Shown here piece after piece: positions 2,165-49,039 of a DNA stretch of 64,000 bases. The number at the start of each line of letters is the position of its first letter. Position 1 is the first letter of the stretch. Origin of the DNA: an uncultured Bacteriovoracaceae bacterium (GTDB lineage: Bacteria > Bdellovibrionota > UBA2428); assembly GCA_964538275.1 (NCBI GenBank), contig CAZIFW010000002.1, forward strand, positions 5,052 through 69,051, written 5' to 3'. The position numbers and the translations under genes are program-made. The notes beneath the pieces were generated by a model. That model made no database searches, was not told where the DNA came from, and was given only the letters and a program-made list of their open reading frames with translations.

Positions 2165-3211
2165 TTATTCAGGGCGTGTTTGGTTTAAATATTTTGGCTC
2201 AACATAGTCAGGAGTAAGTGGGTAACGATAACTTTTGTAAGCAGCAAGGTTTGGTCTTCCTGCTTGAATGTAGATTTCATCCCAAAGGTGAGCGAGTGTT
2301 TTTGCTGAACGAGCCATTTGTAAAACCATAAGTGGCTTAAAGTTCGGGCATTGTTCACTGGGCGCAGGACGCACCGCTGGTTTTTTCATAGTCATTCCGT
2401 GCTCGTTTACAGTTTGAGTGGAGGGCTCAATGATCGTATCGAGTTTTTGTAACACTTCGACTTCGTTAACAGCTTCCATTCCAATTTTTTTAATAAGCTC
2501 TGCAGCCGAATAACTTTCTGTAAAATCAGGAAGTCTTAGTGCAAGTTCTCTTAATTCAACATCGAGCTCGCTTCCAAATTCCCCAGGACAAACACTTTCA
2601 TAGTAAGCATGAATACCCCCATGACCCACTCCATAGCCGTCGTAATCCGCCCAATTATGGTAAGGCATGGAGGCGTCTCCTACAAAGTGACCCATAATAC
2701 CCATATTTGTCATCATTCCATAAATGGCTTCATTGTATGGAAGTGCATTGAGTTGTTCTTCGTTGCTATTTAACGGAAGGGCTGTTTCTTGAATGCGAGA
2801 TGCAGATTCTTGAGCAATGTTAAAAAATTGTTCTGCTCTCCACCAAAGTGTTCCTACTTTGTGCACAAGTTGCGAAGCATCTCCTACATTTGAAAGCATT
2901 CTTAAGAATTCATTAAAAAGAGTTGGAGTATCTTTGAGTGAAATACCTACAATGTCTGGCTCGATAAAGTGAGTGGGATTACCTACGCGAGTAAGTTCAG
3001 AGGGAAGACTTTTCCAGTGGATGTCTGGAACATTACAAGTATGACCCATAATATGCCCCCGAGTTTTTAAGAATTCTTTAAGGCCTTCTTCTTTCACAAG
3101 TCGTGAAGCTTCATTGCAAATGCTGTGATGGCCTCTTTCGCCCCAAGCTACGGCCTTCCATGGAAATGCTGAAAATGAAAAAAGAATGGCAAAAAGTTTA
3201 AGACCCCTCAT
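2165..3211 (-). CDS. Secreted S1/P1 nuclease / Zn-dependent phospholipase C family protein
   Basis: Signal peptide followed by mature N-terminal WGxxGH; HFVGDxxMPYH and HAYYE zinc ligands. Confidence 0.8.
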   Translation of the reverse strand: MRGLKLFAILFSFSAFPWKAVAWGERGHHSICNEASRLVKEEGLKEFLKTRGHIMGHTCNVPDIHWKSLPSELTRVGNPTHFIEPDIVGISLKDTPTLFNEFLRMLSNVGDASQLVHKVGTLWWRAEQFFNIAQESASRIQETALPLNSNEEQLNALPYNEAIYGMMTNMGIMGHFVGDASMPYHNWADYDGYGVGHGGIHAYYESVCPGEFGSELDVELRELALRLPDFTESYSAAELIKKIGMEAVNEVEVLQKLDTIIEPSTQTVNEHGMTMKKPAVRPAPSEQCPNFKPLMVLQMARSAKTLAHLWDEIYIQAGRPNLAAYKSYRYPLTPDYVEPKYLNQTRPE

Positions 3212-9422: not shown

Positions 9423-9957
9423 TTCCAGCTTCTTTGTTTTTTTCAAAATCCATCCATAATCGAGAACTTTGAACGCCTTTGTTTCCTTGGTATTTGCCTG
9501 ACTTGTATTCGGAAATTTCACCCTCAACAGAGTGGTAAAAAATTTGGCAAATTTCTACTCCCGCATAAACGCGAATGGGATGAACACAATGCATTTCGAG
9601 AGTCCAAAAACCAGAGAATCCAACATCTCCAAAGCCTGCCGTAACGTGAACATAGAGTCCAAGGCGACCAATGCTTGAGCGACCTTCTAACATAGGAACT
9701 AAATTTTTAGTTTCAGTGTGCTCAATGGTGCGAGCCAGATAAAGTTTTCCAGGTTCAAGAAGTAAGCCTTCAGCAGGAATTTTTAATCTCTCAACAGGAT
9801 TATCCTTTTTCATGTCGAGAGGCATCTCGGTATAAACCATAATCTCGTCGCACAAGCGCAAGTTATATGAATTAGGATTTAAAAGCTTAGGATTGAAAGG
9901 CGTAATTGTAATATCCGTTCCTAAGCGACGTTGAATTTCTGCTCCTGTAAGAATCAT
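9415..9957 (-). CDS. dcd: dCTP deaminase
   Basis: NPNSYNLRL, GRSSIGRLGL, AGFGDVGFSGFWTLE, ICQIFY. Confidence 0.93.
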   Translation of the reverse strand: MILTGAEIQRRLGTDITITPFNPKLLNPNSYNLRLCDEIMVYTEMPLDMKKDNPVERLKIPAEGLLLEPGKLYLARTIEHTETKNLVPMLEGRSSIGRLGLYVHVTAGFGDVGFSGFWTLEMHCVHPIRVYAGVEICQIFYHSVEGEISEYKSGKYQGNKGVQSSRLWMDFEKNKEAGNV

Positions 9958-13486: not shown

Positions 13487-13708
13487 TCACTCGCCGTAGG
13501 TACCGGTTCGAGGTACATCCACTGTTTCTTCAGTATCTACTTCTTTTTCAGCGGCTTTTTGTTTGTAAATTTCTTCACGATTTACAGCGACGTTGCGTGG
13601 AGCTTCAATGCCAATGCGCACTTGTTTGCCCTTGATTTCAACGATTTTAATTTTGATGTCATCTCCGATGACGATTAGCTCACCAATTTTTCTTGTCAGA
13701 ACTAGCAT
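13487..13708 (-). CDS. csrA: Carbon storage regulator CsrA/RsmA
   Basis: [37 protein letters not shown]. Confidence 0.96.
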
Positions 13709-34964: not shown

Positions 34965-35546
34965 TTAGTAATTTTCTGGAAAAAGAATTCGTTCTGCATG
35001 CTCAATGCTGATGTGTAAAATCTGCATGTGTAACTCTTGAATGCGATCTGCAGTTTTGCCCGGAACTACAATAGCTTCTTGGCTCAGACCTAAAGCTGCT
35101 CCACCATCTTTCCCAAGTAAGCTCCATGTGCCAAGACCTTTGCTTTTAGCTACTTCTAAAGCTTTCAAAATATTTGGAGAATTTCCGCTCGTGCTCATGG
35201 CAATTAAAAGGTCGCCCTTTTTTCCAAAGGCTTCAACTTGCCGTGAAAACACGTGTTCAAAGCCAAAGTCGTTAGAGACACAGGTGGTATGTGCTGCCTC
35301 ACCGAGTGCTAGAACAGGCAGGGCTTTGCGATTTCCCCGGTATCGACCCGTGAACTCTTCTGCAAAATGTAGAGCGTCACAATGAGATCCCCCGTTTCCA
35401 CAAATGAGAATTTTATTATCTTCTTTAAAACATTTTACAATTGCATCACCCAAAGCAGAGCACTGTGCAATTAATTTTTCGTTAGCTATAAAAGATTGAA
35501 GTGCTACTTGAGCGTCTGTAAGTGCATTGATCCATACTTGTTTCAT
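34965..35546 (-). CDS. gmhA: Phosphoheptose isomerase
   Basis: CGNGGSHCDA, NDFGF, FSRQVEA, STSGNSPNI, RIQELH. GGAGGA RBS supports a start at 35546. Confidence 0.94.
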   Translation of the reverse strand: MKQVWINALTDAQVALQSFIANEKLIAQCSALGDAIVKCFKEDNKILICGNGGSHCDALHFAEEFTGRYRGNRKALPVLALGEAAHTTCVSNDFGFEHVFSRQVEAFGKKGDLLIAMSTSGNSPNILKALEVAKSKGLGTWSLLGKDGGAALGLSQEAIVVPGKTADRIQELHMQILHISIEHAERILFPENY

Positions 35547-35577
35547 AAAGTCCTCCGAACACATTGTGTTCATTTCA

Positions 35578-37842
35578 TTATCTACTTTCTAGAACGCGAA
35601 GTTTTGCAAATTTTGTCAAAAACTTACGAGTGCCAAATCCTCTAAACTCTACTTGAACTTTAGTAGCATCGCCTACACCGGTGCGAGATTTAATCACACC
35701 ACGTCCAAAGTCGGGGTGTTCGACAGATTTTCCAACTTTATATTCGTCATCAACGGCTTCATAACTTTCTTGAGAAAAAGAAGAATCTGCCCAAGTGGAA
35801 TTAGAGTTTGAAGAGCTGCTGCCGTAGTTGTTGTCTCCGAAGTAACTTCTATCATCGGAGGAATCAAAGCGGTCCCAAGAGCGCTTTGAAGTGTCATCGC
35901 TGTGGTCCTCAAGTGCGATTTTAAGCTTGGGCATTTCTGCTAGAAATCTTGATGGTCTCTGAATTTGAAGACGACCATAGACTCTTCGGACTTTAGCATG
36001 AGTAAGGTAGAGTTGTTTTTCTGCACGTGTGATTCCCACATAACAAAGGCGACGTTCCTCATCGACTTCGTCTTCTCCGCTATTAAGACCAAGAGACATT
36101 TTGGAAGGGAATATTCCCTCTTCTAATCCCAAAACAAAAACATGAGGAAACTCGAGTCCTTTAGAAGAGTGAAGGGTCATCATTTGAACCGAAAACTCTG
36201 GATTCGCTTTATCAAAATCTGTAGATAAACTTGTTTGCTGCAAGAAATCTTCTAAGCCACCTTCTGGATTTTGGGTTTCATAATCAACCAATACGTTGCG
36301 AAGTTCTTCCAAGTTATCGAGCTTGGTGGCGGCTTCCACTGTATTTTGGTCCATCAGGAATTTTCGATAGCCACTCTTATCAAGCAAAGTAGCGTAAAAA
36401 TCAGATAGGCGAGAATCGCGAAGTTCTTCTTGGAGTTCTGCAATGAGTTTTATGAAGACTTGAAATTTCTTTTGAGTTCCAGCGCTGAGGCCGCCGTGGC
36501 CAGAGGCCATCATAGACATAGCTTCTAAGTGTGAAACTCTTTCTTGTAGAGCCATCTCTCGAATTTTATCCATACTTGTAGGGCCAATGCCTCTTGCAGG
36601 GGTGTTTACAATTCTAAAGAAAGCCACTTCGTCGCGTGGGTTAACAAGTAGTCGTAAGTAAGAAAGCGCATCTTTTACTTCTGCACGGTCATAGAACTTA
36701 TAACCCCCGTAGATGACATAAGGGATACGCTCAACGCGCAAACTATCCTCGAAAAGACGAGAGATTGAGTGACTGCGATAAAGCAATGCGATTTTTGAAG
36801 GACATGTGCCTTCGCGCACGAGCTTAGCAACGCGCTTTATCACCCAACGAGCTTCATCAAAGTCCGTGCCGAAGGTGTGAACTTGGACAAGTTCTCCTTC
36901 TCCCGCGTCTGTGAAGAGTTCTTTCTCGCGGCGTTGAATGTTATTGGCAATTACAGCGTTTGCTACATCGAGAATATTTTGTGTAGAGCGGTAATTCTGC
37001 TCTAATTTGTAGATTTTGGCATTGGGGTAATCGCGCTCAAATTCTCGGATATTGCGAATGTCCGCTCCCCGCCACTTGTAAATGGATTGGTCTTCGTCAC
37101 CTACAACAAAAAGGTTTTTATATTTTTCTGAGAGGAGTTTTAGTATTTTATACTGAACCGCGTTTGTATCTTGGTACTCATCTACAAGAATGTAGGGATA
37201 GTTGTTTTGTAAGTCTTCACGAATCTCTGGAAATTTCTCCAAAAGTTCGTATGTTTTTAAAAGTAAGTCACCAAAATCGAGCGCTGAGCTTAGCTCTTTT
37301 TTCTTTTCATAAAGTTTTGCAATACTTTTAAGTTTTTCTCTGTGAGCGGGATAGCGTATTTCTAGAAAGCTATGCTCGCTTGGGTTGATGCCATCGTTTT
37401 TGAGTCGATCAAAATTTTCTAATACAAATTTGGGTGAAAGTTCTTCTTCCGCAAGACCCATTTCTTTTAAAACTTCTTTCACCAATGTGTTTTGGTCAGA
37501 GTCGTCAAAAATCGTAAAATGTGGCGGTAAATTAAATACGTAGCCGTACTTTCTTAGCCAACGCACTCCGGCACTATGAAAAGTTGAAAGAAAAACTTGA
37601 TCCGCAACCTCTGGAGCAACCGTTTCAAGCATCTTTCGCACTCGTTCGCGCATTTCTTTTGCGGCTTTGTTCGTAAAAGTAAGAGCAAGAATTTCTGCAG
37701 GGAACGCGTGGCCTTCCTGAATGAGATTCGCAATGCGTAAAGTGAGTACGCGTGTTTTTCCAGATCCTGCGCCTGCTACAACGAGTGCAGGGCCTTGTAC
37801 GTGCGAACTCGCTGCGGATTGTTGTGTGTTAAGTCCACCCAT
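35578..37842 (-). CDS. pcrA: UvrD/PcrA superfamily 1 DNA helicase
   Basis: AGAGSGKT, TFTNKAA, VDEYQDTN, VVGDEDQSIY, LEQNYRST, KGLEF, EERRLCYVGITRA; C-terminal Tudor-like domain. Confidence 0.96.
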   Translation of the reverse strand: MGGLNTQQSAASSHVQGPALVVAGAGSGKTRVLTLRIANLIQEGHAFPAEILALTFTNKAAKEMRERVRKMLETVAPEVADQVFLSTFHSAGVRWLRKYGYVFNLPPHFTIFDDSDQNTLVKEVLKEMGLAEEELSPKFVLENFDRLKNDGINPSEHSFLEIRYPAHREKLKSIAKLYEKKKELSSALDFGDLLLKTYELLEKFPEIREDLQNNYPYILVDEYQDTNAVQYKILKLLSEKYKNLFVVGDEDQSIYKWRGADIRNIREFERDYPNAKIYKLEQNYRSTQNILDVANAVIANNIQRREKELFTDAGEGELVQVHTFGTDFDEARWVIKRVAKLVREGTCPSKIALLYRSHSISRLFEDSLRVERIPYVIYGGYKFYDRAEVKDALSYLRLLVNPRDEVAFFRIVNTPARGIGPTSMDKIREMALQERVSHLEAMSMMASGHGGLSAGTQKKFQVFIKLIAELQEELRDSRLSDFYATLLDKSGYRKFLMDQNTVEAATKLDNLEELRNVLVDYETQNPEGGLEDFLQQTSLSTDFDKANPEFSVQMMTLHSSKGLEFPHVFVLGLEEGIFPSKMSLGLNSGEDEVDEERRLCYVGITRAEKQLYLTHAKVRRVYGRLQIQRPSRFLAEMPKLKIALEDHSDDTSKRSWDRFDSSDDRSYFGDNNYGSSSSNSNSTWADSSFSQESYEAVDDEYKVGKSVEHPDFGRGVIKSRTGVGDATKVQVEFRGFGTRKFLTKFAKLRVLESR

Positions 37843-37958
37843 GTGGGAAAAAAGCTACTAAGGCAGCAAGTCTATTGGCAATTCAAATTCTCACTGTAAA
37901 TTTAAGCCCTACATGTAGCGTCTTATGACGCCGGAAGACGTTAAAAATAATCAGATGG

Positions 37959-37988
37959 TTGATTTTATAGGCATGCATTCTCTATAAA
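37959..37988 (+). promoter_or_regulatory. Sigma70-like promoter of the candidate ncRNA
   Basis: TTGATT(37959)-N18-TATAAA(37983). Confidence 0.45.
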
Positions 37989-38097
37989 GGGTTCAGCCGT
38001 TCGGGGGTCGGTCCTAAAAAGCCTAAACCCCTGAGAAGCATGAGGCCGGGGGTTGTCCAGTCCTCCCCAATACTGATCCCCGGCCCCAAATTTTTTC
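37989..38097 (+). ncRNA. Candidate structured ncRNA or leader, family unassigned
   Basis: GC-rich island in AT-rich DNA; helices 38001-8/38027-34 and 38044-53/38076-85; alternative 11-bp helix 38002-12/38072-82; U6 tract at 38091-96. Confidence 0.6.
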
Positions 38098-38178
38098 ATT
38101 TCTTTATAAACTAACTCCAAGCTAATCGTCCTTTTATTGACTTCAGTAGCTGAGTCAAAATTCCGATAAAACTACTGC

Positions 38179-39759
38179 GTGTTTTTGAAAATTCTCTTCT
38201 TATTCTTTTGCACTTTTGTGGGTGTATTAGAAGCACAGCCACGTCTAGCAGCCGAACTTGAATTTGACTTAGAATATTTCAAAGTAGGTGCCCCTATTCG
38301 CGAATATTTTGAAGTGAATGATTTAGATAAAATCACTCACTACGATATCAAAAATAAAGATTTACCAGAGATAGGCGTAGTGTTGAGCCGAAAAAAAATG
38401 TTGCCACTTGAAGTAGAAGATCTCTTAGATAGGTTTGAGATAAGTTGGGAGCAAGGCTTTACACCTCCGAAAGTTGAAATCCGACATAAGGGTACAGTAA
38501 CAGCAGCAATAGCCAAGAGTGACATAAAAAAATTACTTAGGCTTTTTGCTTCAAGTGAAACTGAAGCTGAAGAATTATTTAAACATCTAAGTTCTATTCG
38601 GGCCTCTGGAAAGCAGAGACCACATTTGAATGCGCACATTCATGCCTCTGATCCCAGAGGAGCGAGCCGAGTTGAAGAAATGAAAGCTTTGCAGATACAA
38701 ACAACATTAGAATTCGCTCAGAACTTAGATAAAGAAGCAGTGAAGAGACTTTTTACTTCAGAGCTTTCTTCATATTCTCAAAATATGTGGTCGCGAGGGG
38801 TGGGACGGGCTATAGGTCTTTCCCGCTATGAATCGAGAAAACGTTCTGTTCCTATTGATCAAGATATCGATCGATTAAACAATGTAATGTCATCGCAATT
38901 AGATTCTGGAAACGCCAAAAAGGATGCGCTTGCACTTGTAAATGCTGAGGTGATTGAAAAACTATTAAAGATTCCTCTTAAGCCAACAGAGATGGGTGTA
39001 AAAATTTCTTTTTTTGAAGATTTGGCCCATCTTACTCAAGAAAGCTTAGAGGGTGATTTATTGATACGAACTCTTTTAAGCAAAAAAGTTGAGAATGATT
39101 TTAGAAAAATGCTTTCCGTTGAAGGTTTGGAGTTAGAGTCAGTTCGAGTTTTATTGAAACTACGACAACTTTCTAAAGGTTCTCCCTCTGATATTAAAAA
39201 AATTGATCAATTGCTGATTCAGAATTTAGAAAGCTTGGATGTTTATTCTAGGAGAAAGCTTTTGCTTTGGATTTCGAGGAATTTTACTAAAACTGAAGTT
39301 GATGTCCTTGCTGCAGATCCAAATATAAAAGAGTTTTTTTTTGAACCCGTTACTAAGGACCTTATACGGCTCAATTTAGCGGATAATTATTTAGTTTCTC
39401 ACGAACATGGTTATCACGAGTATTTATCCGTAAACACCGAAGCCTTGGGCCCTCAACTAAGAGCTTTAATAAAGGCTTATCAAAAATTGGCCCTTCTTGA
39501 TCCAAATTATTGGGACAAAAATCGTTATCACCTGGGCATGGGTTTGAGAGAAAATCCCTTAGAATTGTTTGATTATTTACCTACTGCTCATGTTGATAAA
39601 TTGTTTCAGCATTTAAAAGCTAGGCCTATAGATATTCATCCTGAAATTGAAGAAGTAATATATTCCTTAAGGGTGAGGCATGAGAAAGAAAAAAGTTTAT
39701 TTTTCGATCCAACTACTTCAGTTAGCAAATCAAACTGTATGCGCTGGTTAGCGCAATAA
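38179..39759 (+). CDS. Secreted hypothetical protein, possible amidoligase-like N-terminal domain
   Basis: Signal peptide; ELEFD, VEIRH and HLNAHIH motifs; C-terminal NCMRWL. Confidence 0.75.
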   Translation: MFLKILFLFFCTFVGVLEAQPRLAAELEFDLEYFKVGAPIREYFEVNDLDKITHYDIKNKDLPEIGVVLSRKKMLPLEVEDLLDRFEISWEQGFTPPKVEIRHKGTVTAAIAKSDIKKLLRLFASSETEAEELFKHLSSIRASGKQRPHLNAHIHASDPRGASRVEEMKALQIQTTLEFAQNLDKEAVKRLFTSELSSYSQNMWSRGVGRAIGLSRYESRKRSVPIDQDIDRLNNVMSSQLDSGNAKKDALALVNAEVIEKLLKIPLKPTEMGVKISFFEDLAHLTQESLEGDLLIRTLLSKKVENDFRKMLSVEGLELESVRVLLKLRQLSKGSPSDIKKIDQLLIQNLESLDVYSRRKLLLWISRNFTKTEVDVLAADPNIKEFFFEPVTKDLIRLNLADNYLVSHEHGYHEYLSVNTEALGPQLRALIKAYQKLALLDPNYWDKNRYHLGMGLRENPLELFDYLPTAHVDKLFQHLKARPIDIHPEIEEVIYSLRVRHEKEKSLFFDPTTSVSKSNCMRWLAQ

Positions 39760-39760
39760 T

Positions 39761-48696: not shown

Positions 48697-48748
48697 AACC
48701 CTTGCGCGCTATTCAGTGTCTACTGAACACAGAGAAGGAGGGGATTCT

Positions 48749-49039
48749 ATGAGTCTCAATAAGTTCATGATCACGTTGGTAGCGCTTGTCGCTTTTGGAG
48801 CAGAAGCTCGGATTGTTCGCATTGTCGGAAATGGATCAGGTGGGACAACCACGGGAGATCGAGATGCTGCATGCGGCAGAGCCTATGAAAGGGCAGAGCG
48901 AGATGCAGAAAGAAGTTGTGATCGCAGAGATGGCGATGTCCTTGATTATCAAGACGGAAACTGTAGTTGCCGCCGCGTGCCAGGATCGCGTGATGATTAC
49001 AATTGTGATGCTACTGTTACAGCTAGCTGCTCGATTTAA
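48749..49039 (+). CDS. Secreted single-domain Cys-rich protein, paralog of 4923-5471
   Basis: Reads on the + strand (the ORF track labels it minus); AAGGAGGGG RBS, signal peptide ending AEA, identical GDRDAACGRAYERAE and PGSRDDYNCDATV segments. Confidence 0.88.
   Translation: MSLNKFMITLVALVAFGAEARIVRIVGNGSGGTTTGDRDAACGRAYERAERDAERSCDRRDGDVLDYQDGNCSCRRVPGSRDDYNCDATVTASCSI

Follow-up and report, generated by a model that had tools for sequence, protein, structure and literature searches.

The 64,000-nt stretch of contig CAZIFW010000002.1 analysed here (assembly GCA_964538275.1; hereafter the window) comes from an uncultured Bacteriovoracaceae bacterium of the Bdellovibrionota. In the 336-nt gap between the divergent genes uvrD/pcrA and a 526-aa open reading frame (ORF), sequence comparison identifies a real, conserved, stand-alone small RNA (sRNA) gene of an uncultured Bdellovibrionota clade. 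The boundaries of the gene, its strand, its structure, the selection acting on it and its independence from the downstream gene are established by comparison with related loci; its expression, seed function and targets we infer. The predicted RNA is composed of a short closing helix (P0) that encloses a first hairpin (P1), a linker, and a terminator hairpin (P2) with a large C-rich loop (Table 1). The 5′ end of the sRNA (37991-37995) was deduced from the -10 hexamer, and the U tract contains its 3′ end. A covariance-model search detected a single copy of the sRNA in the window, and the window sequence is identical to Logan metagenome contigs.

The initial annotation, made from the letters of the window, had proposed at this position a new sRNA with a promoter-like TTGATT-N18-TATAAA, a CCTCCCC motif in an apical loop and a terminal U6. 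The promoter, the CCTCCCC motif (38062-38068) and the T6 run (38091-38096) are all present in the sequence. The designation as a new sRNA stands as well. The Rfam scan and the search for homologs and covariation recommended there gave no match to a family of Rfam 15 and revealed covariation, and the promoter, the covarying structure and the intrinsic terminator are conserved.

Relatives of the locus were found by a UvrD protein search, in which identities are graded from 96% to 70% and are then 51% or lower. The contigs of these relatives were retrieved, and one further locus (L093) was obtained from a pattern scan of metagenomes. All relatives that have UvrD of 72% identity or more and whose DNA was retrieved carry the sRNA. 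These are nine further distinct relatives, and in all of them (UvrD 96-72%) the position of the sRNA is constant, just upstream of uvrD and on the opposite strand. The distinct loci are L083, L084, L085, L086, L087, L088, L092, L093 and L100/L099, plus the window; loci L089-L091 carry copies identical to that of L088. The homologs were detected with nhmmer E-values of 1e-10 to 1e-38 and covariance-model scores of 70-120 bits, well outside what chance would give. Among the MAGs with the sRNA are GCA_041391385.1, GCA_041737715.1 and GCA_020049755.1.

A core of about 45 nt, (A)CAUG(A/U)GGCCGGGGGUUGUCCAGUCCUCCCCAA, is identical in all members, with exceptions in L092 and L100. In the P2 loop, L092 differs by a single C>U, and L100/L099 by a GU insertion plus U>A at 38071, the last base. 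The RNAs of the window and L085 show no difference from 37994 onwards, up to where the covariance-model match ends (101/104 nt). The third codon positions of the adjacent uvrD gene are merely 39-56% identical to those of the window while the core is invariant, which amounts to strong purifying selection on nucleotides and not on codons.

A UvrD scan of species-representative genomes gave Bdellovibrio/Bdellovibrionota metagenome-assembled genomes (MAGs), 43% identical, as the best among the matches listed, none of them with the sRNA. The metagenome scan, which used the 21-mer GGGGGTTGTNCAGTCCTCCCC as pattern, returned one true new member (L093) plus one chance match (L094). The match in L094, at 2159-2179, is GC-rich and unrelated, and lies in a non-homologous context. 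Viral contigs, phage records and plasmid records were also searched, and no sRNA match was found among them. For the GC-rich clade with UvrD 49% identical (L095-L097), the search covered L095 alone; there the covariance-model search produced only noise, and the gap upstream of uvrD does not contain the element. Locus L095 also harbours, at ~9790-9810 of its minus strand, a sigma-54-like promoter TGGCACGAGCTATGCA located 5′ of a 126-aa gene.

The region 37990-38097 of the forward strand folds with -43 kcal/mol, and its minimum-energy structure equals the centroid. The corresponding z is -2.98, with none of 200 shuffles as stable (0/200), and the opposite strand gives z = -1.2. This structure is the first of the two alternative folds drawn in the initial annotation (Fold A, two hairpins followed by U6), which therefore holds as minimum-energy and centroid structure, except that its inner CAGU/ACUG helix within P2 is not kept among homologs; the true P2 loop thus comprises about 20-25 nt. 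Each homolog folded alone yields P0, P1 and P2 with the loop open, and RNAalifold gives the same architecture. In the structure-guided alignment A5 (11 rows, 500 shuffles), 98% of the cells are paired, 10 pairs changed on both sides and 0/500 shuffles equal the observed result, counts that are biased because the alignment was fitted to the structure model. In slid controls of A5, with the partners moved by 1-3 columns, pairing falls to 34-69%.

Hairpin P1 varies among homologs in sequence and in length (~20-36 nt), and 96-99% of its cells stay paired. Changes on both sides were found in eight of its nine outer pairs and two of its three inner pairs, a result not equalled in any of 500 shuffles. 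Apart from one, all P1 loops contain three or more consecutive A, mostly as UAAAA. In P2, seven of the ten pairs are invariant, and the other three show one-sided changes (G-C/G·U or U-A/U·G); overall 98% of the cells are paired, the two unpaired cells being located at the loop-proximal pair. The three pairs of P0 are invariant in the first nine sequences, and C-G is replaced by U-A in L100/L099; this one compensatory event lends the helix weak support. The linker, with the consensus (A/G)AA(G/A)CAUG(A/U), is near-invariant in alignments A4 and A5. The core UCCUCCCCA of the P2 loop has a predicted unpaired probability of 0.82-0.99 in seven homologs.

A U tract follows the P2 stem on its 3′ side in all homologs. 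About 20% of the paired cells are G·U, and this share, together with the T run on one side only, establishes the forward strand as the functional one. The automated terminator scan overlooked P2 because it allowed only loops of 3-8 nt. The initial annotation also described an internal near-repeat. Its two copies, CGGGGGTCGGTCC (38002-38014) and CGGGGGTTGTCC (38047-38058), are indeed present, but the repeat is restricted to the sub-clade with a long P1 (the window and L083-L085) and is absent from L086-L088, L092, L093 and L100.

The sRNA promoter is conserved as well. The sequence TATAA(A/G/C) occurs at a fixed position 5′ of the RNA in all ten homologous loci, and the -35 hexamer is TTGATT or TTGATA with an 18-nt spacer in seven of the ten. 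In L088 and L093 the -35 hexamer is TTGCCC or TTGCTC and in L100 it is TTGTTT, each with a spacer of 17 nt. The automated promoter scan overlooked this promoter because it only accepted -10 hexamers with a T in position 6. Further upstream lies a box with the consensus TGACGCC-N4-GAC(G/A)TTAAAAA, which is found in 10/10 distinct loci. The box starts exactly 57 nt 5′ of the -10 hexamer in seven of the ten loci; in L100 the interval is 56 nt, and in L088 and L093 it is 66-67 nt, which corresponds to one extra helical turn. The distance from the box to the uvrD start codon is variable (~31 to 84 nt), so the phasing with the -10 hexamer ties the box to the sRNA promoter. The comparison suggests that it is probably an activator site or an UP element for this promoter. 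The half-sites GACGCC and GACGTT are spaced 10-11 bp, a spacing that may resemble a response-regulator site. A search for a second copy of the box within the 64-kb window gave merely one chance-level match with three mismatches.

Table 1. Coordinates of the sRNA gene, its parts and its flanking genes in the window.
Feature	Position	Strand	Remarks
UvrD/PcrA helicase gene	35578-37842	-	Pfam UvrD-helicase, E 6e-88
Upstream box TGACGCC-N4-GAC(G/A)TTAAAAAT	37926-37949	+	~-69 to -46 from the predicted RNA start
-35 hexamer TTGATT	37959-37964	+	Direct sequence reading
-10 hexamer TATAAA	37983-37988	+	18-nt spacer after TTGATT
Small RNA, ~100-106 nt	37991-38096	+	Covariance-model match 37991-38094, 120-131 bits
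P0, short closing helix enclosing P1	37995-38041	+	A37995-U38041, G37996-C38039, C37997-G38038
P1 hairpin, 9 + 3 bp in the window	38000-38035	+	A-rich apical loop CCUAAAAA at 38013-38020
Linker AAGCAUGA, P0 3′ strand plus junction	38036-38043	+	Adjoins the invariant core without a break
P2 terminator hairpin, 10-bp GC-rich stem GGCCGGGGGU (38044-38053) / AUCCCCGGCC (38076-38085)	38044-38085	+	22-nt loop in the window
Invariant P2 loop UUGUCCAGUCCUCCCCAAU	38053-38071	+	Core UCCUCCCCA at 38061-38069, proposed seed
U6 tract of the intrinsic terminator	38091-38096	+	Direct sequence reading; T run kept in homologs
526-aa ORF	38179-39759	+	Without Pfam match

The region between the box and uvrD possesses further features. 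A perfect 10-bp palindrome, CTACATGTAG, is located at 37909-37918 of the window, directly adjoining the box. At the same position L085 has CAATATATTG, in which the dyad is kept via paired changes, and L084 has CTATATGTAG. The palindrome may be an operator in a common uvrD/sRNA control region, found in the closest sub-clade only. The uvrD leader (37843-37870, minus strand) has no recognisable Shine-Dalgarno sequence, the sequence 5′ of the ATG being AGCTTTTTTCCCAC, and its segment AAAAAAGCTACTAA is kept in L083-L085. This suggests that the uvrD leader is very short or unusual.

A more distant locus, L098, with UvrD 51% identical to that of the window, encodes a two-hairpin RNA at the same position (~2303-2420, minus strand of the locus; z = -4.5). 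The other flank is replaced there by an aminotransferase gene. The terminator loop of this RNA is AAUCCUCCCCA, which keeps the C-rich motif AUCCUCCCCA, and the loop of its hairpin 1 contains a second C-rich motif, ACCCUCCCAAU. The covariance-model E-value is merely 0.017; nevertheless, because position, orientation, loop motif and the promoter segment GATCACTATA are in common, the L098 RNA is likely a diverged homolog of the window sRNA. The survival of the C-rich loop in a sequence that has otherwise diverged suggests that the functional core of the RNA is this loop.

Scanning the whole 64-kb window against Rfam 15 at the gathering score returned no match. With the threshold relaxed to E ≤ 10, positions 37800-38250 gave only noise, namely GP20-b (16.1 against 36.2 bits required) and CRISPR-DR16 (13.3 against 35). 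The sRNA is therefore not SRP, 6S, RsaE, 6C, sX13 or another curated family. The literature search yielded no prior sRNA description for Bdellovibrionota, nor one for the motif UCCUCCCC. The sRNA represents a new family among the C-rich-loop sRNAs, which are a known kind. The promoter and the terminator of the gene are kept in 10 distinct loci, whatever the flanking gene, as expected for a stand-alone sRNA. Similar to other members of the C-rich-loop class, it displays an invariant motif, UCCUCCCCA, that is predicted to be unpaired and is kept in L098.

Two known RNAs of bacteria were considered and rejected. The 4.5S SRP RNA resembles the sRNA in size, in being a GC-rich gene in an AT-rich genome and in the GAAGCA hexamer; however, no SRP hit was found at E ≤ 10, and the P1 loops are A-rich, variable and 4-9 nt long. 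A small SRP RNA is ruled out by the missing GNRA tetraloop and the lack of an Rfam match. The comparison with 6S RNA, which the initial annotation had made on account of a rod with a central bubble, fails, since this fold is not conserved among homologs, the sRNA has ~100 nt against a rod of ~180 nt, and no Rfam 6S match was obtained.

Among the closest known systems is LhrC1-5 of Listeria monocytogenes, which is likewise short and stand-alone, with two hairpins and a CU-rich UCCC-type loop motif that also occurs in the hairpin of the terminator. The Shine-Dalgarno region of lapB, which is G-rich, is bound by LhrC through UCCC motifs of loop A and of the terminator loop (PMC4132741). LhrC is reported to be induced via the two-component system LisRK, an induction that would parallel the phased upstream box of the sRNA. 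There is no sequence or covariance-model similarity between the two RNAs, they belong to different phyla, and the sRNA is single-copy in the window. Moreover, LhrC possesses three C-rich motifs, whereas the sRNA has one, in an invariant loop of ~20 nt, and the L098 variant two.

Other members of the class are found in several phyla. RepG (HPnc5490) of Helicobacter pairs through its terminator loop. In sX13 of Xanthomonas, apical C-rich loops (4C/5C) pair with G-rich motifs near translation starts, and the same paper mentions HPnc5490 and tlpB (PMC3771888). Unlike sX13 with its three C-rich loops, the sRNA combines one variable hairpin with the terminator hairpin. It differs from the sX13, RsaE, RoxS, 6C and RepG class as a whole in having no Rfam match to it and a longer conserved block (45 nt). 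A work on the 6C sRNA of Actinobacteria likewise points to C-rich loops directed towards G-rich or Shine-Dalgarno regions (PMC6486639), and a work on Escherichia coli sRNAs presents the transcription-terminator loop as a functional pairing surface (PMC11979758). These E. coli sRNAs are known, Hfq-dependent, enterobacterial and non-homologous to the window sRNA. The sRNA has features of the Hfq type, namely a U tail and an A-rich loop in P1; an hfq gene was not found in the 64-kb window.

With modest confidence, we favour a trans-acting sRNA with its own promoter and terminator, in which the C-rich terminator loop is a seed that pairs with G-rich or Shine-Dalgarno sites. Seed pairing is proposed because the stand-alone gene, the variable 5′ hairpin, the U tail and the exposed C-rich loop match the known riboregulator class. 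Transcription would start from the sigma-70-type promoter TTGATT-N18-TATAAA, probably helped by the upstream box, and would end at the intrinsic terminator of the gene. The P2 loop, unusually large with its 20-25 nt, exposes the invariant UUGUCCAGUCCUCCCCAAU, whose core UCCUCCCCA, together with its flanks, may act as seed and pair with GGGGAGGA-like G-rich stretches at or near the Shine-Dalgarno sequences of targets. Such pairing would block ribosome binding or alter mRNA stability, with the A-rich P1 loop and the U tail as possible chaperone contacts. The P2 loop contains CCUCC, the core of the anti-Shine-Dalgarno sequence. The loop was described as anti-Shine-Dalgarno-like and exposed in the initial annotation as well. 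Its invariance and its predicted unpaired state bear this out, but no specific target was found, and the example given there is mis-oriented. The example, GGAGGGG (48737-48743; ATG at 48749), matches CCUCCCC only over the generic 5 bp of GGAGG/CCUCC; the antiparallel complement of this motif would read GGGGAGG.

Several observations weigh against this reading. No convincing target was detected in the 64-kb window, in which the sole GGGGAGGA is the antisense of the gene itself, and exact and 3-mismatch complements of the loop correspond to the gene only. RNAduplex energies calculated for 61 crude start regions were on average no better than those of shuffled loops, and the best hit lies inside a murC-like coding region and uses non-conserved loop bases. 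A k-mer scan of the window and all related loci revealed no orthologous conserved target site. An 8-nt complement of the loop, GGAGGACU, is located at 35549-35556 (minus strand), just 5′ of the start at 35546 of a SIS-domain gene that lies downstream of uvrD, and overlaps the Shine-Dalgarno sequence of that gene. This site is kept merely in the window and in its closest relative L083, and is therefore probably just a strong Shine-Dalgarno sequence. Since only ~60 genes out of a whole genome were searched, the missing target means little. In addition, the invariance spans 45 nt and extends over the linker and the P2 5′ strand, which exceeds the needs of a seed and could instead reflect a protein-binding surface. 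A loop of 20-25 nt is also atypical for an efficient intrinsic terminator.

The long invariant block is the main argument for an RNA that binds or sequesters a protein, in which the 45-nt segment (linker, P2 5′ strand and loop) would be the recognition surface of a protein maybe linked to uvrD/pcrA. We consider this unlikely, though it accommodates an invariant block that far exceeds the usual length of a seed and reaches into the stem, the lack of targets in the 64-kb window and related loci, and the divergent linkage with uvrD, which holds down to 51% UvrD identity despite the change of the other flank. On the other hand, repeated protein-binding motifs are missing, for example GGA loops for the CsrA encoded in the window; L098 keeps little but the C-rich loop motif, and has it duplicated in the other loop, as seed-driven evolution predicts; and with ~60 genes in the window the missing target weighs little here as well. 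The CsrA homolog of the window is encoded at 13544-13708 (minus strand) and matches the CsrA of E. coli with 53% identity across 55 aa (tblastn E 1e-18). A CsrA sponge was rejected, as the sRNA lacks GGA loop motifs, though csrA is present in the window.

The persistent divergent linkage (96% to 51% UvrD identity, with the other flank changed) also makes a tie to uvrD possible. Under this explanation, the sRNA would be functionally coupled to the UvrD/PcrA gene via a common divergent control region, and would not be an ordinary anti-Shine-Dalgarno riboregulator. We give this coupling only a slim chance. If it exists, the sRNA could form a co-regulated part of the response to DNA damage or replication stress, under the control of the factor that binds the phased TGACGCC-N4-GACGTT box; alternatively, it could be bound by a protein, with a repair or transcription factor recognising the 45-nt invariant surface.

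Very unlikely is an element acting at the DNA level, such as a bidirectional terminator for adjoining genes, a site of protein binding or a site of integration. Relatives do have different genes in the slot that separates the element from a phosphofructokinase gene, which would suit an integration site, and the near-palindromic P2 stem gives weak covariance-model matches on the reverse strand. Nonetheless, the covariation of P1 includes many G·U pairs, which are A·C mismatches on the other strand, the promoter is conserved at a fixed upstream distance, the T run is one-sided, the invariant loop lacks dyad symmetry, and the searches of viral contigs, phages and plasmids were without match.

The variable slot corresponds to positions 38100-39760 in the window, 2002-2628 in L085, 1107-2675 in L087, 992-2605 in L092 and 2740-2760 in L088. 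From the sRNA terminator to the phosphofructokinase gene, it is empty in L088 and L093. This slot, immediately 3′ of the sRNA, has the appearance of a hot spot for gene insertion.

A cis-acting leader, attenuator or riboswitch for the 526-aa ORF was the other possibility raised in the initial annotation, which regarded the ORF as a secreted gene; under this reading, Fold A (terminator) and the second fold drawn there (Fold B), or an anti-terminator, would be the two states of a switch. In its favour, the co-directional ORF begins ~80 nt past the U tract in the window, and the P1 3′ strand can pair with the P2 5′ strand in 96% of the cells. However, four arrangements are found on the downstream side: the place that the 526-aa ORF has in the window is taken by a GNAT acetyltransferase gene in L085 and by a DEAD-box helicase gene in both L087 and L092, and in L084, L088 and L093 the gene that follows converges on the sRNA, which leaves no co-directional gene there; the leader reading is rejected on this ground, and we see hardly any chance for it. 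The conserved nucleotides, moreover, are located in the terminator loop and not in an aptamer-like 5′ domain. Nor are the two alternative folds borne out: Fold B can be drawn, but with -29.5 to -30.6 against -43 kcal/mol it falls short of Fold A by 12-13 kcal/mol, and in the homologs just 74-76% of its outer helix is paired, with pairs broken in many of them. The proposed mutually exclusive helices fare no better, as shuffles equalled the observed values in 53-381 of 500 trials. In the inner helix of Fold B the changes are confined to one side, as C/U swaps facing an invariant G run, where any pyrimidine strand would do.

Lastly, a small protein starting at AUG 38041-38043 (MRPGVVQSSPI...) has next to no probability: although this AUG is invariant and the sole L092 substitution (GUC>GUU) is synonymous in frame, no well-spaced Shine-Dalgarno sequence lies 5′ of it, the frame crosses the terminator and has 11 codons in L088 and L093 and 24 in the window, the 2-nt GU insertion in L100 shifts the frame, and the third positions are invariant, with no synonymous drift, against 39-56% in uvrD.

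The helically phased box upstream of the promoter points to a dedicated transcription factor, and hence to a signal to which the proposed trans-acting sRNA would respond. The sRNA opens no new category of biology, and adds a well-supported candidate RNA family with covariation, promoter, terminator and about 11 members. Bdellovibrionota are largely predatory bacteria. An invariant C-rich loop in a terminator hairpin has been met with independently in Firmicutes, Actinobacteria, Xanthomonas and Helicobacter. The finding in Bdellovibrionota strengthens the view that such loops are a convergent solution for masking G-rich ribosome-binding sites.

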